Program-made: the position numbers and the translations under genes
The notes under the pieces: generated by a model
Seen by the model: the letters and a program-made list of their open reading frames with translations, nothing else
Told to the model about the DNA's origin: nothing
Databases searched by the model: none
In this document: in pieces, positions 7,692 to 41,052 of the stretch
Layout: each line of letters begins with the position of its first letter
How positions within the stretch are numbered: the first letter of the stretch is position 1
IMG/VR virus record: IMGVR_UViG_3300014499_000008
Span: 1 to 55,533 of that record
DNA length: 55,533 nt
Source of the DNA: a virus
Lineage: Duplodnaviria > Caudoviricetes
Strand: one strand, 5' to 3'

Positions 7692-7761
7692 TGCAACCAT
7701 GATGGTGTCGTTTGTGTCATAGGGAGCGGAGGGACTTCCTCCACGACTGAAAAGGCTACAA
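7692..7761 (+). promoter_or_regulatory. Early promoter/leader cassette copy E
   Basis: TGCAACC-a-TGATGGTGTCGTTT...GGAGCGGAGGG...AAAGGCTACA-ATG; four related copies at 36.2-41.05 kb. Confidence 0.75.
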
Positions 7762-8253
7762 ATGACTACCAAAACACTTCCCCGGTTCGCGCAGCTTGCG
7801 CAAGAGCTATTCGATGCGATCGAGCCCGCAACGCGTTCAAACACTGACGAGAAGTACCTACGTCTCAAAGACGGTTCGCCGGAGTGGATGAAGTCAGCCA
7901 TCCGTTATGCACACGACGATGCACAAATGCTGCCGGACGATCTTCGCTACGAATACATCAACGACGCGGCGGAGATGTTGGCCCAGTGTGAAGATGAAGA
8001 TGCGGTCAACGATCTTGAGTTCGAGGCAGACATCTGTCACCATGAATTGTTCGCATGGTTAGCTTCACACGGCACGCGTTATAGTTACGTTGATGAAGAG
8101 GTCGAAGAGAACGGTCACTCTAGCGACGGTCTGATCGGCGATCTGCAGGCGGGTCAAGTGCGTGAGAAACAGGAAGTGTTGCAGCAGTTGTTTCACGCAC
8201 TGCAAACGCAAGCGGAGAACGAACCCAATGCCAATGACGAAGGCGGAGAGTAA
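7762..8253 (+). CDS. Highly acidic Ocr-like DNA-mimic / anti-restriction candidate
   Basis: D/E-rich 163 aa; EADICHHELFAWLAS segment resembles the T7 Ocr helix pattern; own early promoter cassette. Confidence 0.5.
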   Translation: MTTKTLPRFAQLAQELFDAIEPATRSNTDEKYLRLKDGSPEWMKSAIRYAHDDAQMLPDDLRYEYINDAAEMLAQCEDEDAVNDLEFEADICHHELFAWLASHGTRYSYVDEEVEENGHSSDGLIGDLQAGQVREKQEVLQQLFHALQTQAENEPNANDEGGE

Positions 8254-8395
8254 GGCGAAGCAGCGCGAATACTGGGTGAAGGAACGAGGCTACTGCAAGG
8301 ACTGCATGCAGCGGCCCCATCTTCCCGAACGAACGCGTTGCAAGCAATGCACCGATGATGAAGTTATCCGACAAAGAAAGAGACGAGCGAAATGA
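8228..8395 (+). CDS. Small Zn-finger protein
   Basis: CKDC...RCKQC; basic; ATGA overlap with next ORF. Confidence 0.5.
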   Translation: MPMTKAESKAKQREYWVKERGYCKDCMQRPHLPERTRCKQCTDDEVIRQRKRRAK

Positions 8396-8577
8396 GCATA
8401 CCGGAGAAGTACGACAAGAAAGCAGCAGCGTGGAAACCAACGTTACCACCCGATGAGCCATCTGAGTGGGAGAAAGAGCTTGAAGCAGATGCTAAAGCTG
8501 GTTTGATCACTACGACCGAGATGGGACCGGACGGCAACATGCACGCGATAGACTTTGCCAACGGCGATTATGACTAA
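8392..8577 (+). CDS. Hypothetical protein
   Basis: Coupled to neighbouring ORFs by overlaps. Confidence 0.45.
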   Translation: MSIPEKYDKKAAAWKPTLPPDEPSEWEKELEADAKAGLITTTEMGPDGNMHAIDFANGDYD

Positions 8578-9191: not shown

Positions 9192-12100
9192 ATGAATGAC
9201 ACCGTAACCGCCTATTTCGTGGGACCGGACGATGCCTCCACATGCGACACAGGGGGGCCGGATGATGAAGGGTGCGATGGCGCTGTAAACGGTAATCCGT
9301 ACACGCTAGACACCGTTCCAGAACCCGGCTCTTTTGCTTGTACGTCACGTTGCAGGCACATGGTTCAAGTTCACGGCGATGCGCCTGACGGCGTTGAAAC
9401 GATGGATTACACCGGAGACATTGGCTTCGGTGCCGCTGGAGATGCAGCAAATGAAACCGGCGCAGAACGTCTTGATGCGGCGGGAGTAAAGCTCGATGAT
9501 TTGACACCTGACGAACTCGCAATCGTTGATATGTCAAATGGTGAGATTGCACAATATCTCAAAGATAACAATCTCGACATCAGCGACGTTGATTCAGTGC
9601 TAACGTCTGACGATCAAGACGCTGTGCGCGCCGAGATGAATGCGCTTGGTTACAGGCCAAGTTCTGGTGACGACTTTAGTGCAATGGTGTCGAATGGTGA
9701 TGTTGATTCGATTCGTGCATATATCGATGCAAACGGCGTTGATGAAGCGCATCAATTAGCTGCCGATGGGTTTTCAGACGCTAGCGATGCGTACAATCTC
9801 GCTGATGCATTGAATCAAGTTGAGAAGCTTGAGCAGTGGGAGGTCGAATACGACCCGGAAACACAAACGTGGACAGTCACGAACTCCGTACAGCGTTTGG
9901 CGCAAGTCGCCAAAGAACAAAAGCTGAGCACATTAAAACAGTTCTTGCGTGAAGTCGGCACTGCGTCGAGTGGTAATCACCATCACGCAGGACGACCGGG
10001 TGAGGTGGGTGGAAGCGGCCCATCGGATTCACCGCGCGTCATTGTCCCGTCGAGTGCAGGCGAAGGCAAAACAGATCACTATTGGATGGGCGTAAGTCAG
10101 CCTAGTGGTGCGCCCATTCGCGGAACACCGATTGCGTGGAATGATCCTCGTATACCGGACATCATTTATCATGTGACGCCGAATGCAGATGCGATTCAAG
10201 CGTCAGGTTTGTTACGCGCGGGTGGCGTTGGTGGACTCGGCGGTGATAAGAACGATCAGATTGTTTCGTTCACCATATCGAAACCTGTTGCTGAAAACTT
10301 GAAGTCAGCAATGCTAATTATGTCGAATGTCGCGCGTGAAGTTGGGCCGGAACCGCCAATGCGCACGCCTGAGCGCGAAGCGTGGGGAACCAAAACAGTT
10401 GAAGCGTTTGCAAAAGGTGCGAAGGCGGAAGGTTGGGACTATAAACTTGAACCGAACTACGAAGAAGCAAAGAGTGATTACGGACTAAGCGATTGGTCAA
10501 CTCAGTTCATGGGCCGTCGAGATAGCGCGCACATGGATAAAGAAACATATCAAACACCTGAGCGTTGGCGCAATCCGTTGTTCTTCGGTGTAACACAACA
10601 ATATTGGGCGAACGTCGATCCTAAGAGTCTCGGCATTATTTCAATTCCGAAAGCGAATCTGAACACTGGTGCATTGATTACTGACTTTGATCTTGGTCAG
10701 CGTAATCTTGAAGAAGTTCGTTCGTACGGTGATGTGCCGATCACGAACCACATGCGCGAAACACTGACTGCTATTCGTGAAGCTGCACAACGTCAATTGG
10801 TTGGTCAAGTCACAAGCGTGCGTGTTCGCGAAGTCGGAACAGCGTCGAGTGGCAATCACAATCATCCCGGTCGCCCTGGTCATGTTGGCGGTAGCGGTCC
10901 ATCAATGGAAAACGTCAGTCCCGAAGCGCCTGATCTTGCGCTCGAACACGCAAAGGGCGGATGGTCGGAAAACAGTCAAGCAAGGCCACATCTGCAGGTC
11001 GCAGCGAATCGGCAATGGGGGAATGAGGACACTGCAAACTTTACACCGATGATGCTTAGACGTTGGGGCGTATCGAAAGAGAACAAGTACACGCAAAGCG
11101 ACATTATGAATCTTGCAAATGCACAAGAACGTAATGCACAGATTGCGCGTGAACAATATAATATACCTAACAATACAGTGTTTCGCGGTAGTGGTCCCGC
11201 TGAGTATGCAGACATCCCAAGTGATAAACCGTTCACATTGCGTCCGCTTATGTCAACAACAACAAACGAAGATGTAGCGAATCGATTCGGACTTGGCGGA
11301 TATGAATCAGGCAATTACTTCAATGTCAATTATCCTGACACATATCGGCTAGAGATACGTGGACTGTCGCCGGAGGATGTGTTCAGCAACACTAAGGCGT
11401 TTCAGATCGATCGCGACGTAAAGGCGTATGGTAAGACGCATTACGAAGATGTCGAGTTCGAGCATGTATTGTACGGTAATCAACACGAATGGCAGGTTGT
11501 TGGTGAGACTACACAACCTTGGACATTCGACGGCATCGCGCGCACCGTTCACACGAAGATAATCGAACCAGTCGGCGGCGGGAAGCATTACGATGGCCCA
11601 GGTTCAAAAGTACCAGCTAAGCCTGAGTTGACATTCAGCACAGCAGATGACCCCGAAGATGAAAGTGGCTGGGGCAAGGTATTCACTGCGAAGCTTGGCG
11701 ACAAAGTTGTTGCAACTGCGCGTAAGGATATAAATAACAGTTATCTGTCCGATGTCTACGTGAACCGCGCGTATCAGCGACAAGGTATCGGAATGAAGCT
11801 GTATGACTACATTGAGAAAGATCGCGGAATCAAGCTGACTCAGCATCCGACCTATGACACACCCGCATTGAATGCGTTCTGGGCACATCGCAAAGCCAGT
11901 GCCTCCCGTGAAGTTATGCGCGAGGGAGGGCCGGGGAGTGGCGATAGAGGCCATCCTGGGCGTCCTGGGCAGGTAGGAGGGTCAGGGCAGAGCGCAGGTG
12001 TCAGCAAAGCCGCCGCAGCGGTCGCAGACAACCCAAAAACCGCATCCGGGGGCGGGAAAGAGATTCCGCCCAGTGATCCACCAATCGATACTACGAACAC

Positions 12101-12890
12101 TCGCTGGAAGTCGTATGTGAAGAAGATCGTTGATACGCCGGGAACACATGCCTACGATCTGAACAGCACCGGCAACGGCTATCAGCTTGAAGCACAGGGC
12201 ATGGATTACGCTGGTTCATCGTACGTTGATCCAAAGGTTCGTGAATACAACGCGAGATTGAAGTCAACAGTGCTCGATGAAGTTGCACATAATATCGATG
12301 ACATCAATGGTCAAGTTCACAATCTCGATCAATTGTTCTTCGCGAAAAGTATGAGTATCGGTAGTGATGATTTCAGTACAACGGTAGCTGTAACGTTGAA
12401 CAATTCACCGCAGGGCAATGTCGTCGGGTTCAATATGGATAAGATCGGCAGGCATCAACGTATCGGTGCTGATTACACAACTGCCGATCGCGCTGCCAAC
12501 ACAACCGAATATGCAAAGTTGATCACCGATCACGAGATGGGCCATGTATTCTACAATCAGTTAGGACGTAAAGATACATCACAATGGAAGTCAACATGGC
12601 AGAACGCGCAGATCAACGAGGAACATTTCACAGGATATTCAGAATCGAACGATCGTGAAGGTTTTGCCGAAGCGTACTGTGCTTATGTCAACGGATTCAA
12701 AGACAGATTACCGCGTGGATATATGGAGTTTTTCTTGGAACGCAATGTCGATCAACTCAAAGAAGCTGAACAGGCTGACAATGAACCGTTAGCAATTCTG
12801 TGCGGCTTTGGTGATGCGCCAACCGTTCACGTTTATGCCGATCGCATCGAAACGTTTCCAGTAAAGCAGGACAATGAAGATCACAATTGA
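9192..12890 (+). CDS. Polyvalent MuF-associated effector protein: MuF Cys motif, two ART-like domains, GNAT, zincin metallopeptidase
   Basis: DDASTC..C...PEPG..CTSRCRH; YHVT..IQASGL..VSFT..EEVR; VFRG..STTTNEDVA..EFE; VYVNRAYQRQGIG; HEMGH..EGFAEAY. Confidence 0.8.
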   Translation: MNDTVTAYFVGPDDASTCDTGGPDDEGCDGAVNGNPYTLDTVPEPGSFACTSRCRHMVQVHGDAPDGVETMDYTGDIGFGAAGDAANETGAERLDAAGVKLDDLTPDELAIVDMSNGEIAQYLKDNNLDISDVDSVLTSDDQDAVRAEMNALGYRPSSGDDFSAMVSNGDVDSIRAYIDANGVDEAHQLAADGFSDASDAYNLADALNQVEKLEQWEVEYDPETQTWTVTNSVQRLAQVAKEQKLSTLKQFLREVGTASSGNHHHAGRPGEVGGSGPSDSPRVIVPSSAGEGKTDHYWMGVSQPSGAPIRGTPIAWNDPRIPDIIYHVTPNADAIQASGLLRAGGVGGLGGDKNDQIVSFTISKPVAENLKSAMLIMSNVAREVGPEPPMRTPEREAWGTKTVEAFAKGAKAEGWDYKLEPNYEEAKSDYGLSDWSTQFMGRRDSAHMDKETYQTPERWRNPLFFGVTQQYWANVDPKSLGIISIPKANLNTGALITDFDLGQRNLEEVRSYGDVPITNHMRETLTAIREAAQRQLVGQVTSVRVREVGTASSGNHNHPGRPGHVGGSGPSMENVSPEAPDLALEHAKGGWSENSQARPHLQVAANRQWGNEDTANFTPMMLRRWGVSKENKYTQSDIMNLANAQERNAQIAREQYNIPNNTVFRGSGPAEYADIPSDKPFTLRPLMSTTTNEDVANRFGLGGYESGNYFNVNYPDTYRLEIRGLSPEDVFSNTKAFQIDRDVKAYGKTHYEDVEFEHVLYGNQHEWQVVGETTQPWTFDGIARTVHTKIIEPVGGGKHYDGPGSKVPAKPELTFSTADDPEDESGWGKVFTAKLGDKVVATARKDINNSYLSDVYVNRAYQRQGIGMKLYDYIEKDRGIKLTQHPTYDTPALNAFWAHRKASASREVMREGGPGSGDRGHPGRPGQVGGSGQSAGVSKAAAAVADNPKTASGGGKEIPPSDPPIDTTNTRWKSYVKKIVDTPGTHAYDLNSTGNGYQLEAQGMDYAGSSYVDPKVREYNARLKSTVLDEVAHNIDDINGQVHNLDQLFFAKSMSIGSDDFSTTVAVTLNNSPQGNVVGFNMDKIGRHQRIGADYTTADRAANTTEYAKLITDHEMGHVFYNQLGRKDTSQWKSTWQNAQINEEHFTGYSESNDREGFAEAYCAYVNGFKDRLPRGYMEFFLERNVDQLKEAEQADNEPLAILCGFGDAPTVHVYADRIETFPVKQDNEDHN

Positions 12891-13345: not shown

Positions 13346-13549
13346 ATGTCAAAAGATGAACCATTTCGTTCAGTATATTACGATTCTGCGAACGATCAAG
13401 AATCGGATGAGGTTGCAGAACGGCTCAAAGGTGTTCGAGAATCGTTGATCGAGGAGAGCGACACGATTGAACGCAAGCGTATGCGCGAAGTTAAAAAGCA
13501 AGCGGCTGATGAAGGCAATCCGTACCCGCATACGTTGCGTGAATCATGA
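13346..13549 (+). CDS. Small charged protein rich in x-x-E-S motifs (possible core protein)
   Basis: GAGG SD; VRES, IEES, LRES. Confidence 0.5.
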   Translation: MSKDEPFRSVYYDSANDQESDEVAERLKGVRESLIEESDTIERKRMREVKKQAADEGNPYPHTLRES

Positions 13550-13935
13550 GTCAAGTCATTGACGGTCAGCTAACGATTCACGAAGAGACGCTCTCGTTGC
13601 TTGAATGCGTGCAACAGGATTACGTTATCGCATTAAAGCCATTGGTCAAGTATCTGCAGCGCGTGGCAAAGGCGACAGCGCCAAGCGATGTTGAGTCAGC
13701 GCGTGTCGAACCGTTGGGGATGTCGCCTTGGGATTGGATATGCTCGAAGAACCGAAAACTCATGCACGCGGCGGGGCAGGAAGGGATGGCAAATACGATC
13801 ATGACGATGCTGCGCGGAGCAGAAGTCTGGGCGAAAGATCACGGTACAACGCTCGAATACGTCGATGTGGCACGATCGACGTGGACACCTGACGGTCGAT
13901 TGATCATCGAGTTCAAGCAAGGGACAGACGCATGA
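13546..13935 (+). CDS. Hypothetical protein
   Basis: ATGA overlaps at both ends. Confidence 0.6.
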   Translation: MSQVIDGQLTIHEETLSLLECVQQDYVIALKPLVKYLQRVAKATAPSDVESARVEPLGMSPWDWICSKNRKLMHAAGQEGMANTIMTMLRGAEVWAKDHGTTLEYVDVARSTWTPDGRLIIEFKQGTDA

Positions 13936-14123
13936 CCATCATCCTCGCATTCGTGATCTTGTTCTTCTTATTCGGCGGCGGTTACTATGGTTGGTACAGA
14001 GGTCGTCCTACGGTCGTTGGTGCCCCTGCAAGCTCATACGGATACGCACCGGGACTGGGCGGCATCCTGGTGACGATCGTGGTCTTGTACGTCATCCTGC
14101 ACATCTTGCTACGCATCGTCTAA
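13932..14123 (+). CDS. Small two-TM membrane protein
   Basis: Two hydrophobic helices separated by a Gly/Tyr-rich loop. Confidence 0.6.
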   Translation: MTIILAFVILFFLFGGGYYGWYRGRPTVVGAPASSYGYAPGLGGILVTIVVLYVILHILLRIV

Positions 14124-14150
14124 AAACCATCATCCGGGGCGGGGAAAGGC

Positions 14151-14427
14151 GAAGCCGTTGACGTGGAAGGCTACTAACACATCAACGGCTTCCAGTGACT
14201 TGCATCACCGACCGTGCGCCCGCCGTTGATGCATTGCTGCACCACCCGGCCCTCTTGAACGCTCCGGCACCTCAAAACCTAGCTCATGTTGTTGTGTCAC
14301 GTCAAGACTCACGAGCGTTACAAAACGTATCGGCGCACTTCATACATTGCACGGTTCTTCATAAGAGCGCACGAAACCGCTGCAGTGCTCGCCAGTCCCA
14401 AAAGCAAAAACCGGGGGCGGGAATGAG
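14151..14427 (-). ncRNA. Candidate antisense sRNA 1 ending in a 15-bp hairpin with loop UUAGUAGCCUUC
   Basis: Stem fully paired only on the minus strand (one U-G); minus-strand TGATATAAT at 14434-14442; boundaries inferred. Confidence 0.5.
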
Positions 14428-14433
14428 AGTGTC

Positions 14434-14442
14434 ATTATATCA
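14434..14442 (-). promoter_or_regulatory. Extended -10 promoter (TGATATAAT)
   Basis: Reverse complement of attatatca; AT-rich upstream. Confidence 0.5.
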
Positions 14443-15754
14443 ACATAACGAAAACGAAAAACAATGGAAACGAAATGATCTTCAGTGAATCAACAACAAC
14501 AACATTCTCTCTCTCTCTCCTCTGCTCTATCATTATGTATAGCACCTCACTGTCAGATACAACGCGGAGGGAAGAGCGATCGATACCTTCCCCCCTCTGA
14601 GGAAATATGTCAGAGCAGTAGTCAGTCTCCCACCAACCTACAAGCCATGGGACGGCCTGCTTACCTAGTAGTCAAGCGTGTGGTCTACCTAGCGCAGCGT
14701 GATTTCGTGATTCGGCGATCTGTATAATCCTACTACAGTTTTGGGCAGTATCTCGAACCCTATCGCTTGACTTCCTGTTCAGCAAGCAGATGGTCAACAA
14801 GCGCAAACCATTGCAGTATAATGGATTGCGCTTCATGGTTGCTCCGCTCTCAGCACTATTCTCTTCACCCGCTGCTGAAACGGAGTGCCAGGGGATGGTG
14901 ACCGGCGAATCGAGGGTTCGCACTACTCCTATTGCTGTTTCCGCCGATCGCATGCTGCTTGGTAGGTCAAGCGGGTGGCTGGGTTTTCCCTGGGGAGGAC
15001 CCGCTTAGCCCACCTCTCCCCTCTGCCCCGGAGGAAGTAGAGAACGCACTACTCCTTTCCTGCGTCTGTACACGTCTAGACACGAAATTGAACGCTAGGG
15101 GGCCTACGTTGACCCAGGACGCACGGCACCTCTCTAGATAGGCAGATGTATCTCCCAAGCTCACAAACGCGTTCCTAGAGCCTCCATCGCTAGCCGTCAT
15201 TGTTGGGTCACCTGACCGGCTTAACCCGTTCTTTACTCGCTTGCTAGCTTGCCTTGCGTTGACTCGGGCACCCAGATCATGCCTATCATACTGGTGTCGG
15301 TGGCTGTGAGCTTGCTTGTATTGATATGTAAGATAAGCCAAAGGAGTAGTGCAAGTGTTTCAGCTATGGCACTCGTACTACAGTTCTTGTGCAAACGACA
15401 TGTTCTCGACGTGTAACATACGAATCGGTTTGTGAAAGGAAGTGAATCAGCATGAGCGTTACGCGATGATTTCAGATTGATTGAATGTTGTGTTTGAAGA
15501 TTGAATGTTGTTTTGCGTAATTAGTGTGCCTGCTGCCGATGATACCGCTGCAGCGGAGTGAGGGAAACGATGGGATAAAAAGAGTTCGCTTGTAGCGACT
15601 ACGCAGGTCCCTGACAAATCTTCATCTGATCGCGTTTCTCCTGACGGGCGATCCGATGGTGGCGCTGAAGCCTCGATAGTACCGCCGACACGGGAACTCG
15701 GGGCTTTGTCGTGGAAGGAGGCGATCAGCCGTCTTTGAGCAGGCGGTGATCGAT

Positions 15755-15776
15755 CGTCGTTAGTAGCCTTTCGGCG
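15755..15776 (+). ncRNA. Candidate antisense sRNA 2 hairpin with loop UUAGUAGCCUUU (5' end unknown)
   Basis: CGUCG/CGGCG stem with U-G pair, loop matches the 14151-14192 loop at 11/12 nt, terminator immediately downstream. Confidence 0.45.
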
Positions 15777-15786
15777 TGGGAGGCAG

Positions 15787-15825
15787 AGGGCCGCATTCAC
15801 TCCTGTGAGCGCGGTCCTTTGTTTT
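15787..15825 (+). terminator. Intrinsic terminator
   Basis: AGGGCCGC...GCGGTCCT stem followed by TTGTTTT. Confidence 0.6.
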
Positions 15826-16317
15826 GCTCGTGTATGATGGTGTCGCGGCATTACAAGTTAGTGAGCATGCAGATCGAGCGAACTGTGCAGAACGGTCTGC
15901 TGCGTCCTATGCGTCTAGGGTGGCCCAGTTCGCCCGGTAACTGCGGTACTTTCGTACTGTTCACGTCTTGACACGGCTAATTCGGTGCGTATCATTGAAT
16001 GATTCCCCCGCCGTGCATTGACTGTGCGCCCGCAACCCTCTTGAGAGTCTCGGTCATTGTCATGGCAAAACATAAGGCTACGAAGATATGGTATCGCGCC
16101 CGAAGGTTCGCGATCTTACTTCCTATCGCGCGCACGTAAAGTGTCACGCGTATGACACCGCGCGCTGTTGTCCATATCTTGCGCACCGGGACAAACCGGG
16201 CGTGCTTGTCTATACCTGCATGTACGTTCAATTGAGTCATGTTTATTCTCAACTTAGCGGTTCATGCGCTGATCCGTTTGATGAGGTCAGCCAAACCGCA
16301 TTCCCGAGAGAGATGAA

Positions 16318-16749
16318 ATGCAATCAACCAAAGCCCCGGTCAAAGAAGTTAGCAAACATAGCGTGACACCTATCTCCCCCGAGCTTGATGATCTTGACGT
16401 TGATGAGGATGAACTCGATGACGACGACGATGACGAGCTTGAAGAAGATGACGACGAGGACCCTGACCCCGCCGCCAATGTCGATTCTGCCGTCAGTGTC
16501 GCGGAAGCTGGGCGGCGCGGGGGTTTGATCAATAGTCAGCGGAAGCGTGCGCTCGATCCTAACTACTTCCGCACGATCGGCAAGCGTGGTGGGCAGGCCA
16601 CGGCCAAGAACCATGACACGGAGCACTATCGGTTGATCGGCACGCGCGGCGGCAAGAGCAATGCCCAAGCTCATGATCACGATCATTTCGTTGAGCTTGG
16701 CACGCTGGGCGGTGCGAAGGTTCGTGCAGCATTGCAGCGCGGGGAGTGA
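16318..16749 (+). CDS. KGG-repeat (GsiB/YciG-like) stress protein with acidic N-terminus
   Basis: EAGRRGG, IGKRGG, IGTRGG, LGTLGG repeats; poly-D/E tract. Confidence 0.75.
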   Translation: MQSTKAPVKEVSKHSVTPISPELDDLDVDEDELDDDDDDELEEDDDEDPDPAANVDSAVSVAEAGRRGGLINSQRKRALDPNYFRTIGKRGGQATAKNHDTEHYRLIGTRGGKSNAQAHDHDHFVELGTLGGAKVRAALQRGE

Positions 16750-17121: not shown

Positions 17122-17355
17122 ATGAGCTTACATTCGTCAACGTTTAGTTATCTTCTACCTAATGACGATCAGAAGGTGAAGATGGAACGCCTTCGAGAAG
17201 CGGTGAAGGTTTATGCAAAAGTAATCGAAGCCGACATTCAAGATGGTCCCGATAAAACATACATATTCCGCAGGCTGCGTGAAATAGCTATGTGGGTGAA
17301 CGTTGCGATCACGCGATGTGCCGACGGTACTCCGCGTACTGATCGTGAGCCTTAG
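17122..17355 (+). CDS. Acb2/Tad1-like helical-hairpin nucleotide-sponge candidate
   Basis: TFSY..P.DDQ..M..LRE..K.YA..I...DGPDKT...LRE..MW.N.AI.R pattern. Confidence 0.55.
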   Translation: MSLHSSTFSYLLPNDDQKVKMERLREAVKVYAKVIEADIQDGPDKTYIFRRLREIAMWVNVAITRCADGTPRTDREP

Positions 17356-18727: not shown

Positions 18728-18805
18728 GCAGGAGGTCCTGTTGGTGTCGCTGGTGAACGAGGCAAGCGTGGGTTCCCTCTAGCTCACCATCAGCAAAGGC
18801 TACAC

Positions 18806-20089
18806 ATGGCGAAGATTCAAGACATGACGGGCATCACGCTCGTCACCCGTAAGGATGGAAGTCAGGCGTGGGAGATTCGACTCAGCACGCGAGAGAACGG
18901 GAAGCAGAAAGCGTACTGCGCGACCGTTGACACCTCGGAAGGGGCGGCGCGCAAGAAGCGTGACGAGCTTCGCGTGCAGATCGCGCTCAATCAGAAGAAT
19001 CGAAAGAAGAACGGGGCGAACGTATCGGTTGGTGATATACCATTCGCCGTCGCGTTCGATCGATTCATCGCGGAAAAGACGCTCGTGTACGATCAGAAGA
19101 AAACCGCCCAAGGCTATACCGAACTGGGCGTGCGGCTGAAGAAGGCGTTTGGCCCAGTCCCGTTCGGCAAACTCGATCGCGCGATGGTCCGTAAACAGAT
19201 CAAGGTGTGGAAGAAGTCCGGTAAGCTCAAACCGATTCGCGGTCAAGCAGCGATCGATCTGAAAGAAGGCCTATCGGATTACCATATCAACAAACATCTT
19301 TCGCTGTTAGGCACCGTTTACAACTACTTCATCGAGGAAGTAGAAGCAGGCGACATCATGAGTCCGGTGTCGAAGAACATGATGTTCAAGATACCGAAGC
19401 CCAAGCAAGACGAGACAACGACGTATAGCTGGGCGCAGGTGAATCAATTGTTCGCCGCCGCCGATGCGTATCCGGCGCGTTCGAGTTTCAACAAACTGCG
19501 GTTGAAAGCCGTCACGCACTTGATGATCTTTCTCGGCTTGCGGCGTGGTGAGGTGTTCGGTTTATCATTTGACAGTATCGACTTCGAGAAGAAGAAGCTG
19601 CACATCTGGCAGGTTGTAGAGATTGATGCCTCTGAGAAACGTACTCCGGTATTGAAGCCGTGCCCCAAGACGGAAGATTCAGATCGTTGGTTAGCAATCG
19701 ATGATTACACGCTGGCAATCTTGAAAGCGTTGCGCTCGGAATATAATAAGCTGAAGCTCGCATCGAAAGGATTGTTCGATGCAAACAATCATCGACTGGT
19801 GTTTGGCGATGTAAAAGGCAACCCATATTCCGGCAGCAATTTCAACTGCGTGTATACGCGTCTCGTGAAGCGGGCAAAGCTGCCGTACGTTTCACCGCAT
19901 CAACTGCGACATACGTTCGGCACGCTACAGCGCGCGGCAGGTATCGACATGGAGACGATCGCAAAGCGCATGGGGCACAAGTCGCGGATGGTGACGGACA
20001 TTTATGCGGAGTGGAACGTCGAGATGGATCGGCGCTGCCAAAACATCTTGATCGCAGCATACGAAGGTTCGCTCAAGGTCGCTTCGTAA
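18806..20089 (+). CDS. int: Tyrosine integrase
   Basis: GLRRGE (R), PKT (K), HQLRH, MGH, TDIY; N-terminal arm-binding-like domain. Confidence 0.93.
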   Translation: MAKIQDMTGITLVTRKDGSQAWEIRLSTRENGKQKAYCATVDTSEGAARKKRDELRVQIALNQKNRKKNGANVSVGDIPFAVAFDRFIAEKTLVYDQKKTAQGYTELGVRLKKAFGPVPFGKLDRAMVRKQIKVWKKSGKLKPIRGQAAIDLKEGLSDYHINKHLSLLGTVYNYFIEEVEAGDIMSPVSKNMMFKIPKPKQDETTTYSWAQVNQLFAAADAYPARSSFNKLRLKAVTHLMIFLGLRRGEVFGLSFDSIDFEKKKLHIWQVVEIDASEKRTPVLKPCPKTEDSDRWLAIDDYTLAILKALRSEYNKLKLASKGLFDANNHRLVFGDVKGNPYSGSNFNCVYTRLVKRAKLPYVSPHQLRHTFGTLQRAAGIDMETIAKRMGHKSRMVTDIYAEWNVEMDRRCQNILIAAYEGSLKVAS

Positions 20090-20169: not shown

Positions 20170-20190
20170 CAAGTTAGGAAAGGCTACATT

Positions 20191-28420: not shown

Positions 28421-29698
28421 ATGAAGTTCGCTGATGCGTTGTCGCTTAATACCGCTGCGATCAGCGTTGGGGCGACAACGCCTGTTGTTCCGATCGGCGC
28501 GTTGATCTATTCGACAACGGCATCATCGGTCTTGTGGTTCAACGGAACGTCGTGGGTTGCACTTACTTCCGGTTCGTCATCAGGAGCAGTCCCTATGTAT
28601 AACGCCGCCGGTACGGTGCAAACACCTCATGATGTCATTGGACAAGCAACACTAACACTGGTGAATGGCAGCGGTTCTGCACCAATTGCGCTGAGTGGCT
28701 TGGCAGCATTCACGAGCGCGGCGAGTTATGGGCTTGCATCACAACCGACTATTGTTGGTGGAACGTCTCCACTTGCCCCGATTAGTGCGATCACCACTGG
28801 ACTCAGCAGTCCACAGTGCGTAGCCGTTGATAGCACCGGCAATATCTACGTTGCGAACGCTGGCAATAGCACCGTAACGAAATACGCATCAACCGGCGGA
28901 GCAGCGATTCTCACCATCACGAGTGGACTCAGCAGCCCATACGGCGTAGCCGTTGATAGCACCGGCAATATCTACGTTGCGAACGCTGGCAATAGCACCG
29001 TAACGAAATACGCATCAACCGGCGGAGCAGCGATTCTCACCATCAGTAGTGGAATCAGCAGTCCACGCGGCATAGCCGTTGATAGCACCGGCAATATCTA
29101 CGTTGCGAACGCTGGCAATAGCACCGTAACGAAATACGCATCAACCGGCGGAGCAGCAATTCTCACCATCACGAGTGGGCTTAGCGCTCCATACGGCGTA
29201 GCCGTTGATAGCACCGGCAATATCTACGTTGCGAACACTGGCAATAGCACCGTAACGAAATACGCATCAACCGGCGGAGCAGCAATTCTCACCATCAGTA
29301 GTGGAATCAGCAATCCATACGGCGTAGCCGTTGATAGCACCGGCAATATCTACGTTGCGAACGCTGGCGGTAACAACGTACTGAAGTACGCATCAACCGG
29401 CGGAGCAGCGATTCTCACCATCAGTAGTGGAATCAGCAGTCCACGCGGCATAGCCGTTGATAGCAGCGGCAATATCTACGTTGCGAACAGTAGTTACGTG
29501 AGTGTTCTAACAAGCTCTGGAAGCGTTGTTTCATCAATTGGTCTTATGAATGCGCCTGCTTTAGCGACTGATGTGCTTCCGTTCTTTTCGTTAGCACCGA
29601 TTAGTGGTTCGAGTGCTGCCTTACTCTGTGCGGTTGAAGGCGCGGCAGCAAATGTCGATGGTACAATCGTCGTCACGTACAAGCTGAACGGGTATTAG
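28421..29698 (+). CDS. NHL-repeat beta-propeller protein (putative receptor-binding protein)
   Basis: Six P.GVAVDSTGNIYVAN repeats of 42 aa. Confidence 0.85.
   Translation: MKFADALSLNTAAISVGATTPVVPIGALIYSTTASSVLWFNGTSWVALTSGSSSGAVPMYNAAGTVQTPHDVIGQATLTLVNGSGSAPIALSGLAAFTSAASYGLASQPTIVGGTSPLAPISAITTGLSSPQCVAVDSTGNIYVANAGNSTVTKYASTGGAAILTITSGLSSPYGVAVDSTGNIYVANAGNSTVTKYASTGGAAILTISSGISSPRGIAVDSTGNIYVANAGNSTVTKYASTGGAAILTITSGLSAPYGVAVDSTGNIYVANTGNSTVTKYASTGGAAILTISSGISNPYGVAVDSTGNIYVANAGGNNVLKYASTGGAAILTISSGISSPRGIAVDSSGNIYVANSSYVSVLTSSGSVVSSIGLMNAPALATDVLPFFSLAPISGSSAALLCAVEGAAANVDGTIVVTYKLNGY
28790..29490 (+). repeat. 126-bp tandem repeats (NHL blades)
   Basis: TAGCCGTTGATAGCA at 28821, 28947 and onward with 126-bp period. 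Confidence 0.9.
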
Positions 29699-29704
29699 CC
29701 CGGA

Positions 29705-30991
29705 ATGAAGTTCGGGGGAGTGGTCGTTCCTGGTAAGGCTGCAATCAGCATCGGGGCGACAACTCCAAACGCCCCCAAGGGTTCACTCATGTACTCGACT
29801 TCAACATCGAGTATCTTGCAATTCAATGGCACTTTATGGCAATACCTCACAACAGGCAGGTCACTGCCGATATGGATGCTTCCCATGTATAACGCCGCTG
29901 GCACACTGCAAACGAATCCCCATGAGGTCATCGGACAAGCAACGATAACGCTGGTGAATCTTGCTGGTTCTGTTCCCATTACCTTGAGTGGTTCTGCTGC
30001 ATTTACCAGTGCAGCGAGCTATGGATTTGCTTCACAACCGACGATTGTTGGTGGAACGTCTCCACTTGCCCCGATGAGTGCGATCACCACTGGACTCAGC
30101 AATCCATACGGCGTAGCCGTTGATAGCAGTGGCAATATCTACGTTGCGAACGCTGGCAATAGCACCGTAACGAAATACGCATCAACCGGCGGAGCAGCGA
30201 TTCTCACCATCAGTAGTGGACTCAGCAATCCATACGGCGTAGCCGTTGATAGCACCGGCAATATCTACGTTGCGAACACTGGCGGTAACAACGTACTGAA
30301 GTACGCATCAACCGGCGGAGCAGCGATTCTCACCATAAGTGGACTCAGCAGTCCATCCGGCGTAGCCGTTGATAGCACCGGCAATATCTACGTTGCGAAC
30401 TATGGCGGTAACAACGTACTGAAGTACGCATCAACCGGCGGAGCAGCAATTCTCACGATCACCACTGGAATCAGCAGCCCATACGGCGTAGCCGTTGATA
30501 GCACTGGCAATATCTACGTTACGAACACTGGCAATAGCACCGTAACGAAATACGCATCAACCGGCGGAGCAGCGATTCTCACCATCACTAGTGGAATCAG
30601 CACTCCACGCGGCGTAGCCGTTGATAGCACTGGCAATATCTACGTTACGAACACTGGCAATAGCACCGTAACGAAATACGCATCAACCGGCGGAGCACCG
30701 ACTCTAACCATCACGAGTGGGCTTAGCAGTCCATACGGCGTAGCCGTTGATAGCAGTGGCAATATCTACGTTACGAACACTGGCAATAGCAGCATCAAAG
30801 TGTTTACGAGTATTGGCGGGACGTTAAACACTCTTGTTGGTGCAGCAGTAGCGGCTACAGCAGTTGTACCCGTCTTTTCGCTCTACCCGATTAGTGGGTC
30901 AAGTTGTACCTTACAGTGTGTGGTCGAAGGCGCAACAGCAGCAAATGTCGATGGGACAATCATCGTTACCTATGACTTACGGGGGTATTAA
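29705..30991 (+). CDS. Second NHL-repeat beta-propeller protein (tandem paralogue)
   Basis: Same architecture and near-identical repeat units as 28421-29698. Confidence 0.85.
   Translation: MKFGGVVVPGKAAISIGATTPNAPKGSLMYSTSTSSILQFNGTLWQYLTTGRSLPIWMLPMYNAAGTLQTNPHEVIGQATITLVNLAGSVPITLSGSAAFTSAASYGFASQPTIVGGTSPLAPMSAITTGLSNPYGVAVDSSGNIYVANAGNSTVTKYASTGGAAILTISSGLSNPYGVAVDSTGNIYVANTGGNNVLKYASTGGAAILTISGLSSPSGVAVDSTGNIYVANYGGNNVLKYASTGGAAILTITTGISSPYGVAVDSTGNIYVTNTGNSTVTKYASTGGAAILTITSGISTPRGVAVDSTGNIYVTNTGNSTVTKYASTGGAPTLTITSGLSSPYGVAVDSSGNIYVTNTGNSSIKVFTSIGGTLNTLVGAAVAATAVVPVFSLYPISGSSCTLQCVVEGATAANVDGTIIVTYDLRGY
30083..30800 (+). repeat. 126-bp tandem repeats (one unit 123 bp)
   Basis: Six NHL units shared at DNA level with the upstream gene. 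Confidence 0.9.
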
Positions 30992-34274: not shown

Positions 34275-34837
34275 GATCGTAGCCTTTCGTTAGAGAGTGA
34301 AAGCTCTCTATTTCAGACTACTAACTCGAACGTCCCTTCTCATAAGCGATTACCGTTGCCGCGACTTCAGCCGGAACGCACCCGGCGCAGGCGTACCCTC
34401 CGGCGGCGAGGGCGTACATGGTCGCTTCTACCGCCCTACAGCGTCGGCATGAATACCGGCCTAAGATGGCACGGAGGACGGCGACGAGGCGGGTCCTGGG
34501 GCTTTGGAGGCCCTCTGGCGGCTCTGATTCTGTGCGATCGTCCACGCTTGCTCACCGACTCTCTGCAGGAAGGTCGCCATCAGGCTGTAGGAGACGAGGC
34601 CCCAGGCCCCCCAGAGTGTCCACGCGAGGATGGCGAAGGCGATCGTCAGGAGCGGAAAGCCAATACGCGGGGGCGGGGCAAGGTTCGGTATGATCACCGG
34701 AGGGTCGGCGAAGTCAATTCCAAGCACCCTCGATGATTCGTCAATGGAGCCGATCGATATGCGGCGAACGCCTTCACTATTGGCGATTGAAAGATATGCA
34801 TGTTTCATTTGCATGAGGATACCATAGGAAGGCTACG

Positions 34838-36214: not shown

Positions 36215-36283
36215 TTGTAGCCTTTCGAGGACCGTTCCGGCCCTTCGCTCCTCACAACCCTGATGGTGTCGCAATGGTTGCAA
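36215..36283 (-). promoter_or_regulatory. Early promoter/leader cassette copy C (core inverted)
   Basis: TGCAACC-a-TTGCGACACCATCA-g-GGTTGTGAGGAGCGAAGGG...GAAAGGCTAC. Confidence 0.75.
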
Positions 36284-37275: not shown

Positions 37276-37346
37276 GATGTGTAGCCTTTCGAGGGGCAGA
37301 GCACCCCTTCGCTCCTTACAACCCTGGCGACACCATCATGGTTGCA
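37276..37346 (-). promoter_or_regulatory. Early promoter/leader cassette copy A
   Basis: TGCAACC-a-TGATGGTGTCGCCA-g-GGTTGTAAGGAGCGAAGGGG...GAAAGGCTAC. Confidence 0.75.
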
Positions 37347-37393: not shown

Positions 37394-39575
37394 TCAGATG
37401 TGCTCACTTTCCAGTGATAGCAGTTCATCGAGAACACGTTTCGGCAGTGCGGCTTTCACTGCTAGGGCAAGGGCACGCATTTGCGCGCCCTCGGCTGACT
37501 TACCTTCACCTTTTACGACGTGACGCTGACCGCCGTACTCAGCGGTAACGTCGGCAACCCAAAGAATGCGTTCGTCAGTCGCATCTTTGACGTTGACGCC
37601 GATCACGGCAATATCCATTGCGATCGATTGCGCGATGGCGACGAGAGTGATTGCTTTCATTATTTGCGATCTTCCACGAAGTTGAAATACGTGCGCGGGT
37701 AGTGGGTGAACTCCATACTGCCCTTCATGCCGTCGCTTCTGCGGCGAACCACGACGAACGGTGCCATGAAGCCGAGAACCTCGAACTCAGCGCGCAGGGC
37801 GTCGGTGTCCCAAGTCTTGTCGGCGAACAAAACATCAACAGCGGGGGCGTTAGAAGCGATCATCGCGCGGCGGATTGATTCGGTATCGTCTTGCATGTTG
37901 TAGCCTTTTCTTGCTGGAAGTGAGTTATTTGTTGAGCGATCGTGCTGCCATCGGGGATTGATACGTGCAGCCTTTGCACCGCATATACATTGCAATGCCC
38001 TTGCCGCCGATCAAGAGCGGGTTGCTGACTTCGACTTCCCACTGCACGAAGATATGACCGTCGCACTCCGGGCATACATCACTTTTAGAGGTAAACTCGC
38101 CGAGCTTGCGTGGTTCGCCTGTCACCGTTGCGCCCGTGCCGTCGTCGGGTCGCATGATTACCATCTGGCTCACAATGTTTCTCCCTTGTAAACGCCGACA
38201 AGTTGATACCGCCAATTGATGTTCGCGCCGATGTCAGGTAACCGTTGCGGAGGCACATCAACTTCAAGCATCGCGGCGGGGGAGCCAAAGGAAACGAACT
38301 GGCGGTGGCCCAGGAGTTGACTGCCGAAGTCCTGGTTCTCATAGACCGCGATACCGTCCCCGCGCGCCAACCATTTGTTGACGACGGCGTAATGTTCGGG
38401 GTCGAGTTGCAACTCGTCTTTGCTGAGCATCTTCGTCTTTTTCATTAGCTGCCCGCCATGTACGTTAGATTGATCGATGGCGCATCACGAAACTTGTCGA
38501 GTCCTTCGTCAGTGATGTACGCGACACCGAACTCGCTAAAGTGATCCGCGCACGTTGCGCCAACGATCTGCCCCTTCTCATCCATGATCGTCCATTGCGT
38601 CTCAGCGAAGCATTCCTTGTTCGCGCACATCCAAACGCCGACACTCACTGCGACGGTGAAGTTATTCCTGCGTGCCATTATGCTGATGCCTTCCCACGTT
38701 CTTGCGCTCGCGCCGCGCGAATCATGTTCGACAGCATCACCTTCGCGCCGTTGATCATCGCATTCGCCTGACTGTTCTGTTCGATGCCTCCGGCATGCTG
38801 CGCATCGCTGAGCAGCAACATGATGCACATCGGATATTCAACGATGTTGGTCGGCGGGATGGGACGCCCGCAACTGTTGCTGTAGTCCTTCGCGAAGAAG
38901 TCCCAGTTGTCGGACGTGTTCGGATTGTTTGTCATTATTGTGTAGCCTTTTTACTAACAGGGTTCGGGTAGCGAAGTGAGTCGCGAAGTGCGGCGAGTTT
39001 ACGCTCCTGCTCGTCGCAACGAAGGTTTCGTCGGCAGGCACCGGGAGTTTGAACTGGCAGTGCGCGGTCGCCCTTGCAGTAGTCACAACGTTCGATGAAG
39101 TTGCCGAACCATCTACCGGATGCAGCGAGTTCGAGGACAAACTGATCACCGCTGACGCCCATCACGTCAGCGGGTTCAAACCCGCCCTTCGCGCGCCAAG
39201 CACGGTACGCTAAGAGCAGTTCTTGGGCGGTGTCGAGTTCGTATGCGAGCAACGCCGTGCGCGCATCGAGGAGGCATTGAACCGGGTCCATTAGCTGCGC
39301 TCCTCGGTCATCCGGTCAACGAACTCTTGCGTCCCGAACGAACCCGGTTCGAGGTCAGACTGTGCAGGAACCGTATTCCCCCAGTAGTCTTTGTGCCGTT
39401 CCGTTCCAACGGTGCAGTAACCGTTCTTGATGAGGTCCATCGCTTCGCGACCGGCGCTGCCTTGGAAGTGCCAGATCGTACCGTCGTTGATCATGGCTTG
39501 GATACCGGCAATGTGCTCCTCGAAGGTCTGCTCCTCCGGTTCGACCATCGTGGTGTATGTATCGGTGTTATCCAT
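37394..39575 (-). other. Leftward early operon of small hypothetical ORFs (starts 39575, 39291, 38935, 38445, 37896, 37660 and others)
   Basis: TAATG coupling; AAAGGCTAC leaders before 39575, 38935 and 37896. Confidence 0.6.
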
Positions 39576-39648
39576 TGTGTGTAGCCTTTCTGAGTGAGAG
39601 GCTTGGCCCCTCACTCCTCACAACCCTGATGGTGTCGTTTCGGTTGCA
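39576..39648 (-). promoter_or_regulatory. Early promoter/leader cassette copy D (core inverted)
   Basis: TGCAACC-g-AAACGACACCATCA-g-GGTTGTGAGGAGTGAGGGG...GAAAGGCTAC. Confidence 0.75.
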
Positions 39649-40906: not shown

Positions 40907-41004
40907 GTTTGTAGCCTTTCGAGTTTTTGAATCGTTCGATCAAACTCGAACGCTTTCAATCTGTTTTGTGAGTCATCTTTCAGTTTTCAAGGTTCCGGGA
41001 GCGT

Positions 41005-41052
41005 TACGGCCCCTACGCACCTCATAACCCTGGCGACACCATCATGGTTGCA
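41005..41052 (-). promoter_or_regulatory. Early promoter cassette copy B
   Basis: TGCAACC-a-TGATGGTGTCGCCA-g-GGTTATGAGGTGCGTAGGGG; divergent from the head operon. Confidence 0.7.

Follow-up and report, generated by a model that had tools for sequence, protein, structure and literature searches.

The window analysed here is the whole of one IMG/VR virus record (IMGVR_UViG_3300014499_000008; Caudoviricetes), a linear DNA of 55,533 bases that is estimated to be 76% complete and of which near-identical copies are present in peat and permafrost metagenome runs. Its genes make use of a standardised ribosome-binding leader: 1–6 nt before the start codons of 12 genes stands a purine-rich AAGG at Shine–Dalgarno (SD) distance followed by a fixed CUAC, and we are confident that this start-associated leader, placed before 12 free-standing genes, defines a regulon. 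Two further copies, which head no gene, flank most of a non-coding gap of about 2 kb in inverted orientation. The single most likely reading of these orphan copies is that they encode antisense small RNAs (sRNAs), which would pair with the leaders; to the whole statement, leader regulon plus antisense sRNA partners, we assign a probability of roughly 0.35.

The octamer AAGGCTAC occurs 14 times in the window, against 0.76 copies expected and a maximum of three in 100 shuffles. Twelve of these exact copies lie 1–6 nt upstream of the start of a co-oriented open reading frame (ORF) of 78–427 amino acids (aa), which bears out an original prediction, made from the letters of the window, that a ribosome-binding motif is common to about 12 genes. 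The starts linked to the motif are 11 ATG and one TTG; at random positions the baseline is 4.8% when any start counts and 1.8% when ATG alone counts, and against the latter the occurrence of 11 of 14 copies before ATG has a P of ~2e-17. Within a crude list of 66 ORFs, 12 of the 29 genes that follow a gap of 50 nt or more carry the motif, versus none of the 37 tightly packed genes; since all 12 carriers are preceded by a gap, the motif marks free-standing initiation regions. The AAGG core is 5–10 nt from the start, which is the SD distance, and the CTAC that follows is invariant in all 14 copies and would lie beyond any usual SD. The leader consensus can be written as (G/C)GA(A)AGGCTAC or as GAAAGGCTAC, and the predicted variant GGAAGGCTAA is indeed present upstream of 48358. 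Eleven of the 12 leader genes, the integrase, ArdC and a PHROG 2319 protein among them, are outside the terminase-to-lysis block; the gene at 7762 is inside this late block. The 12 leaders are as follows.

7752–7759, plus strand: leader motif 2 nt before ATG 7762 (163 aa); extended element upstream, with GACACCATCA at 7700–7709.
16074–16081, plus strand: leader motif 6 nt before ATG 16088 (92 aa), an ORF whose coding score falls slightly below zero.
18796–18803, plus strand: leader motif 2 nt before ATG 18806 (tyrosine integrase, 427 aa).
20180–20187, plus strand: leader motif 3 nt before ATG 20191 (109 aa).
34279–34286, minus strand: leader motif 4 nt before TTG 34274 (190 aa).
34829–34836, plus strand: leader motif in its GGAAGGCTAC form, 1 nt before ATG 34838 (212 aa).
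36217–36224, minus strand: leader motif 2 nt before ATG 36214 (87 aa); extended GCAACC-15 nt-GGGTTG element and GGAGCGAAGGG.
37281–37288, minus strand: leader motif 5 nt before ATG 37275 (ArdC-like, 313 aa); extended element.
37900–37907, minus strand: leader motif 3 nt before ATG 37896 (78 aa).
38942–38949, minus strand: leader motif 6 nt before ATG 38935 (85 aa).
39581–39588, minus strand: leader motif 5 nt before ATG 39575 (94 aa); extended element.
40911–40918, minus strand: leader motif 4 nt before ATG 40906 (417 aa, PHROG 2319).

The motif is kept before starts in the close relatives G002/L127 (TerL 87% identical) and in the distant relative L253, a metagenome contig found through the 129-aa late protein adjacent to hairpin 1 (see below), at 53% identity. 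The 14-kb fragment G001 (TerL 84% identical) has neither a start-associated motif nor any copy of the octamer, and in the distant TerL relatives G003–G005 other 8-mers are enriched, none of which is associated with starts. Among 65 loci holding ArdC relatives there is no enrichment of the motif. It is at background level in five Armatimonadia-type genomes that contain the nearest TerL relatives and in 401 genomes of the same phylum, where two apparent outliers (G398 and G212) proved to be coding A-K-G-Y matches.

In kind, the leader matches the start-associated sequence (SAS) and extended SAS (ESAS) of the Cluster K mycobacteriophages, although its sequence differs and the phage that carries it is not related to them. 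As described in PMC3203893, the SAS is an asymmetric element of 13 bp that occurs in 11–19 copies, 3–7 bp before the mostly ATG starts of non-structural genes; its conservation extends beyond the SD, about half of the copies have the upstream extended element, and the authors left open whether its reader is an RNA or a protein. More recent work puts putative SigA-type promoters in the ESAS and continues to describe the role of the SAS as unknown or ill-defined (Adephagia, 2024; PMC11373665), or asks for experimental verification (Yasnaya_Polyana, 2025; PMC12699233). The Cluster K system has in common with the window a short asymmetric motif in many copies a few nt before the mostly ATG starts of mostly non-structural genes, an apparent SD core with conservation that seems to reach past it, and a subset of leaders with an upstream element of ~50 bp and an inverted repeat, where the Adephagia paper (PMC11373665) puts putative promoters; K1 phages have one gene-less SAS copy in reverse. 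It differs from the window in several respects. The motif here, GAAAGGCTAC, has no match to the SAS, GGGATAGGAGCCC, at two or fewer mismatches; the phage is unrelated and comes from peat and permafrost metagenomes; its gene-less copies are two in number and inverted around a 2-kb non-coding gap; and its upstream hairpin element occurs in both orientations. Because the two motifs are unrelated in sequence, the leader is an analogue and not a member of the Cluster K family. Given this SAS/ESAS precedent, the original statement that no phage regulon of this kind had been described is too strong for the motif; it holds for the antisense partner, in that literature searches, judged from titles, gave neither a phage sRNA acting on a shared leader nor an antisense partner for one.

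In Staphylococcus, RNAIII and the Rsa RNAs use C/U-rich hairpin loops to pair with the SD regions of several mRNAs. An anti-SD sequence in a hairpin loop, and several mRNAs targeted through their SD, are what the antisense reading would share with them; they are host RNAs with shown expression and targets, whereas in the window the putative target would be a standardised leader of 8–11 nt. In phage T4, RegB acts on GGAG in the SD, the effector being an endoribonuclease together with S1, and RegA is a repressor. The likeness lies in an early phage gene set that is controlled through a shared translation-initiation sequence; the differences are that the T4 effector is a protein, that the motif here is longer and more uniform, and that no RegA or RegB homologue was found here, no search aimed at one having been made. 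Post-transcriptional control of early T4 mRNAs by RegB and RegA is the subject of PMC1702504 and PMC3014915.

Several leaders form the end of a longer unit. Those at 7752, 36224, 37288 and 39588 have up to ~60 nt more in common. These extra bases include a GACACCATCA box, a block of the GGAGCGAAGGG type and, immediately upstream of (T/C)CGAAAGGCTAC, a second hairpin. The GGAGCGAAGGG block is exact at 36224 and 37288 and variant at 39588 and 7752; a full small hairpin element of the form GCAACC-15 nt-GGGTTG is present at three of the four (36224, 37288 and 39588), with another copy near 41035, and the copy upstream of 7752 is without the GGGTTG arm. Six of the seven exact copies of GACACCATCA are in intergenic regulatory regions, and some cassettes are preceded by a terminator-like hairpin and a T-run, for example before 37288 and 20180. 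The extended cassettes look like moron-type expression cassettes.

7693–7710, 36255–36281, 37319–37345, 39621–39647 and ~41028–41051, both orientations: GCAACC-15 nt-GGGTTG / GACACCATCA element.

The GCAACC-15 nt-GGGTTG hairpin stands around GACACCATCA in either orientation to the downstream gene, and it may be an operator, part of a promoter or a small repeat element. A separate observation concerns the relative L128 (87% TerL identity), whose structural block includes, at 8147–8403, a 77%-identical copy of the gene at 38189–38445 of the window, where the same gene belongs to the leftward accessory region; the L128 copy is ~480–750 nt downstream of a leader motif, and leader-bearing cassettes seemingly pass from one module to another.

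Although they head no gene, the two copies in intergenic DNA are members of the same repeat family as the leaders.

14124–16087, strand not applicable: non-coding gap of ~2 kb separating the late operon from the rightward genes that follow.
14167–14174, plus strand: orphan motif copy 1, AAGGCTAC in AAGGCTACTAAC; no start codon within 15 nt.
15763–15770, minus strand: orphan motif copy 2, CCGAAAGGCTACTAAC; no start codon within 15 nt.

In agreement with the prediction that neither sense copy is followed by a start codon, no ATG, GTG or TTG is found within those 15 nt. Both orphans contain the 12-mer AAGGCTACTAAC, as a perfect inverted pair (14167–14178 and 15759–15770, 1580 nt apart) that is in no target leader, and in each of the 12 leaders CTAC is followed by A or G; the orphans are therefore more alike than they are like the leaders. 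The intervening DNA shows few signs of coding: codon scores are negative in 10 of 11 gap ORFs versus positive in 9 of 11 control genes, Pfam gave no match for five gap ORFs, and alternative codes with TGA=W or TAG=Q gave no convincing long ORF in the gap. Nor does the gap hold a tRNA, a tmRNA or any Rfam family, either at the gathering score or at E up to 1. It is rich in short repeats, and k-mer enrichment within it was uninformative; scans for relatives with a 14-mer and a 16-mer gave chance matches only, and cultured phages gave no DNA match for positions 13900–16400.

The perfect 12-bp inverted repeat, together with the tyrosine integrase encoded at 18806, raises the idea that the pair marks an invertible or mobile segment of 1.6 kb, or else that the motif works on DNA as an operator. 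Stoperators of Cluster A (L5) phages are such operators, an asymmetric 13-bp motif with many intergenic copies that are co-oriented with transcription and bound by the repressor on DNA. The motif here is likewise asymmetric and co-oriented with transcription; unlike stoperators, which are not tied to starts, 12 of its 14 copies are fixed 1–6 nt from starts, and this spacing points, as does the SD-like core, to translation. Moreover, the hairpin substitutions described below follow a pattern of RNA type, no joints or inversions appear in the contigs of four runs, and part of the interior of the segment is common to G001, which has no motif copy. A DNA-level role of the orphan copies is highly improbable on this balance; PMC3203893 in turn names stoperators as a contrast to the SAS. 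A decoy RNA of the CsrB/RsmZ type, binding CsrA, which had been offered as the alternative to sRNAs, is set aside, the gap having two motif copies, on opposite strands, and no array of sites.

Some features of the gap stand apart from the orphan copies. A patchy conserved non-coding island (window 14687–15120, L214 13242–13725) is shared with the relative G001 and has no Rfam match. It includes a hairpin at 14799–14833 (GCGCAAACCATTGCAG..GGATTGCG), the stem of which is conserved; the loop varies, and in the window it holds the TATAAT of a promoter-like site. RNAalifold run on two island sequences proves little. At 14745–14785, contigs from three DNA runs, elsewhere almost identical, differ by five substitutions and a 1-nt deletion within 40 nt, which suggests a variable patch or a recombinant allele. 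At 14494–14520 there is a (CT)n run, where a contig from an RNA library is 2 nt shorter, at 14506.

The left-hand orphan copy sits in the loop of a strong hairpin, toward which a promoter-like element points.

14151–14192, minus strand (tentative, from the G.U pattern): hairpin 1, with 15-nt arms and a 12-nt loop.
14434–14442, minus strand: perfect extended -10 TGATATAAT, pointing at hairpin 1, ~240 nt away.

The arms of hairpin 1 (14151–14165 and 14178–14192) are 93% complementary, with one mismatch that is C.A on the plus strand and G.U on the minus strand, so that the hairpin pairs fully only on the minus strand, as the original prediction had it. The loop reads GAAGGCUACUAA on plus, where it holds AAGGCTAC at 14167–14174, and UUAGUAGCCUUC on minus. 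The fold reaches -25.2 kcal/mol on plus (z-score, z, of -5.4) and -27.3 kcal/mol on minus (z -6.4), and none of 200 shuffles was as good on either strand. A homologue is found in L253 (2712–2752) in the same place, at the end of the rightward block and ~120 nt after the last rightward gene; it has the same outer stem, a shorter and different inner stem, and a loop that begins with the same GGAAGGCTAC, between flanks that cannot be aligned. The conservation of the loop across relatives, which the prediction called for, is thus seen in L253, one relative only. The L253 mismatch is again C.A on plus and G.U on minus, at another stem position, and the minus strand is ~2 kcal/mol better in both phages; a minus-strand RNA fold, which would display the antisense, fits both mismatches, a pattern that is suggestive, not strong. 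The fragment G001 reaches past the same late genes and lacks the hairpin too, so that the window and L253 carry both leader and hairpin and the motif-free G001 has neither. Hairpin loops are otherwise an unusual place for the motif: among 191 distinct contexts, these being the occurrences of the 8-mer in the window and in all loci collected by then, with ten duplicate loci left out, a loop with a closing stem of 8 bp or more encloses it in three, namely the window, L253 and one 8-bp chance case. A scan with a gapped hairpin pattern gave no match, and a looser pattern gave three chance matches without hairpin or homology. A likeness of the L253 stem to helix 45 of 16S rRNA, seen by eye only, was dropped.

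The perfect TGnTATAAT toward hairpin 1 is present as predicted. The window has only one other perfect TGNTATAAT, 7 nt before ATG 293; shuffles have a mean of 0.70, and 14 of 100 reach two. Between the extended -10 and hairpin 1, the minus strand has only short ORFs of 29–35 aa, none of them credible, and the fold of 14135–14428 on that strand has a z of -2.35.

Hairpin 1 can also be read in the opposite sense. The hairpin starts 28 nt downstream of the last late gene's stop codon, in the same orientation as that gene, much as its L253 counterpart follows the last rightward gene, and at -25.2 kcal/mol its plus-strand fold is itself strong. It may be the 3′ hairpin of the late operon, a terminator or stabiliser, whose loop, showing the leader sequence, would bind or act as a decoy for the reader of the leaders, be it the 30S subunit or an RNA-binding protein of the phage or its host. 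Such a plus-strand hairpin would carry the C.A mismatch in both phages and would have no U-tract, and it would offer one site per hairpin, unlike the decoy RNAs with their many repeats. The same reading extends to the right-hand orphan copy, which would be a gene-less cassette driving or heading a leftward non-coding RNA, and to which the following features belong.

15755–15776, plus strand: second hairpin of the original prediction (hairpin 2), 5 bp with one U.G; marginal.
15783–15828, plus strand: intrinsic terminator, a GC-rich stem-loop at 15783–15822 followed by UUUGUUUUG.
15835–15844, minus strand: GACACCATCA box of the gene-less cassette, one of seven exact copies.

The predicted hairpin 2 did not hold up: alone, it folds at -8.3 kcal/mol (z -0.72), and 42 of 200 shuffles are as good. 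It is absent from the minimum-free-energy structure of a 96-nt segment and present in that of a 131-nt segment, not in the centroid of the latter. The terminator that had been predicted after the second copy is sound, as its stem-loop folds at -27.9 kcal/mol (z -6.07; 0 of 200 shuffles), although a simple terminator scan does not list it. Given this strong stem-loop and the UUUGUUUUG tract, a plus-strand transcript would stop at this point, 11 nt beyond the anti-motif. The reverse complement of the terminator is at the same time the leader-type hairpin of a minus-strand cassette, in which GACACCATCA, hairpin and CCGAAAGGCTAC follow one another without a gene, the full layout seen at 7752, 36224, 37288 and 39588. 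This layout favours the sense-strand reading; against it, the A-run that turns the cassette hairpin into a proper plus-strand terminator, by making the U-tract, is present in none of the four other extended cassettes. No relative covers the right-hand copy. Taken together, we hold it rather unlikely, if well worth keeping in view, that the orphans act as sense-strand elements.

A cassette without a gene also brings to mind a plainer history, in which the orphan copies are functionless leftovers of duplicated or decayed moron-type cassettes and hairpin 1 is an ordinary convergent terminator that carries the motif by chance. Cassettes have been duplicated and shuffled in this genome in both orientations, and the 2-kb gap is non-coding and full of short repeats, both of which favour such a history. 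Decay sits poorly, however, with L253, which keeps the loop motif intact despite a different inner stem and unalignable flanks, with the four extra bases that the orphans have in common beyond the 8-mer (~1 in 256 by chance), and with the near absence of the motif from other hairpin loops. We consider it quite unlikely that the orphans are mere relics.

In the antisense reading, which we prefer, the orphan copies would be the RNA partners of the leader regulon. A leftward non-coding RNA of ~240–280 nt, starting from the extended -10 at 14434–14442, would have hairpin 1 at its 3′ end and display UUAGUAGCCUUC in the 12-nt loop; the right-hand copy, read on the plus strand, would provide an anti-leader stretch 11 nt before the intrinsic terminator. 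Each anti-leader would pair with 8–11 nt of the leaders across the SD and thus lower the translation of the leader genes together.

Several considerations weigh against this scheme. First, the complementarity to the leaders extends over only 8–11 nt. That the loops are complementary to the leaders, as originally claimed, restates that they contain the motif, and the UUA that both orphans add, three bases 5′ of the anti-motif, pairs with none of the 12 leaders, all of which have A or G after CTAC. Duplex energies of the hairpins against the leaders do rank the 12 motif genes within the top 17 of 66, and yet they separate targets poorly, one gene without the motif reaching -22.9 kcal/mol. Second, the choice of strand is finely balanced: hairpin 1 is nearly as stable on plus as on minus, with a preference of only ~2 kcal/mol, and the G.U argument comes from two sequences only. 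Third, neither putative RNA is complete as a transcription unit. The left one has a perfect extended -10 but a 3′ hairpin that lacks a U-tract, as neither strand has one beside hairpin 1; the right one has a strong terminator but no plus-strand promoter-like site near it, the only one in the gap being ~1 kb upstream (14794–14822), and its anti-leader lies in a hairpin at chance level, on DNA whose minus strand has the layout of a leader cassette. Finally, one metatranscriptome library yielded unstranded contigs at 13529–13772 and 14494–14681, which cover neither hairpin and which may reflect DNA carry-over; they speak neither for nor against transcription of the hairpins. Of the sRNA-controlled regulon that had been proposed, the leader regulon thus stands, as does hairpin 1 through its conservation in L253; hairpin 2 and, with its resemblance to a cassette on the minus strand, the right-hand copy are its weak parts.

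A further line of comparison comes from the reverse SAS of Cluster K. The right arm of phage Anaya, scanned with up to two SAS mismatches allowed, has 16 forward SAS copies and one reverse copy, which is in the 385-nt gap between gp96 and gp97. On the plus strand, the strand of nearly all genes of the arm, this reverse SAS makes up the loop, CCUCCUAUCC, of a 6-bp hairpin that is itself enclosed by an outer stem of 10 bp.

L279 34835–34925 (~59835–59925 of the record), plus strand: Anaya reverse-SAS hairpin (alignment A7).

The z-score of the Anaya fold is not significant in this GC-rich DNA, and the hairpin region is conserved in 178 Cluster K records. In an alignment of nine sequences (Anaya and eight of 40 listed rows, picked for spread), the two-helix structure is 92.3% paired, versus 31–54% when it is slid; three pairs are changed on both sides, and several G.U pairs are on plus, the transcribed strand. 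The loop is anti-SAS in five of five K1-like rows. It is another C/U-rich sequence in three of three Unicornvirus rows, and it is deleted in Yuna; Bryler, a Unicornvirus, keeps 11 exact SAS copies and has no reverse copy within three mismatches at the hairpin. These last cases tell against an antisense role. The Cluster K hairpin, in short, is conserved and its exact anti-SAS loop is not universal, which both encourages and limits the antisense reading. The available excerpts of PMC3203893, PMC11373665 and PMC12699233 make no mention of a hairpin around the reverse SAS. A general proposal, which we put forward as speculative and on present showing doubtful, is that start-associated-sequence regulons bring along their own antisense partner, a hairpin RNA that would set the translation of all leader genes at once; the peat phage would do so via hairpin 1, and perhaps via the terminator-proximal plus-strand anti-leader, and the K1 mycobacteriophages via the reverse-SAS hairpin.

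As for the phage itself, its TerL is at most ~30% identical to that of any cultured phage record in a comparison with phage records, and a search for relatives of the portal protein gave a single weak match. The nearest TerL matches in prokaryote genomes are 37–43% identical, and six of eight loci are metagenome-assembled genomes of Armatimonadia/Armatimonadetes, which may hint at an Armatimonadia-type host and is only a hint. The rightward block, with the terminase at one end and a small membrane protein at the other, extends to 14123, and rightward genes restart at 16088, the tyrosine integrase (427 aa) starting at 18806; the accessory region, mostly leftward, occupies 33.7–40.9 kb and includes the ArdC-like protein and the PHROG 2319 protein. 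Two proteins, of 506 and 143 aa, have no relatives in viral contigs.

A few observations lie outside the leader system. The late protein of 1232 aa (9192–12890) has a GNAT acetyltransferase domain at about residues 826–884. The 77-aa ORF at 17122–17355 has a sub-threshold match to an Acb2/Tad1 hairpin domain (23.5 bits; cut-off, 27) and is a possible anti-CBASS/Thoeris sponge. At 28421–30991 there are two adjoining genes of 425 and 428 aa, the first of which encodes an NHL/beta-propeller repeat protein; both hold ACGGCTAC on the opposite strand with a period of 126 nt, and these repeats account for most of the one-mismatch matches to the motif. At 277–293, a perfect extended -10, TGCTATAAT, ends 7 nt upstream of ATG 293, the start of the first rightward gene, which may for this reason be translated from a leaderless mRNA.

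What does a standardised leader mean for phages that carry one? The same design, found with a different sequence in an unrelated and uncultivated phage, makes the start-associated leader look like a solution of general use, not a peculiarity of a single cluster. In both systems there are reverse, gene-less copies in the loops of conserved hairpins, which leads to the hypothesis that the leader has an RNA partner; if this is true, the function of the SAS, open since 2011, would become directly testable in tractable phages such as Adephagia, Anaya and ZoeJ. Should the antisense hypothesis be wrong, the window would still offer a clear case of moron-style expression cassettes whose ribosome-binding region is standardised.

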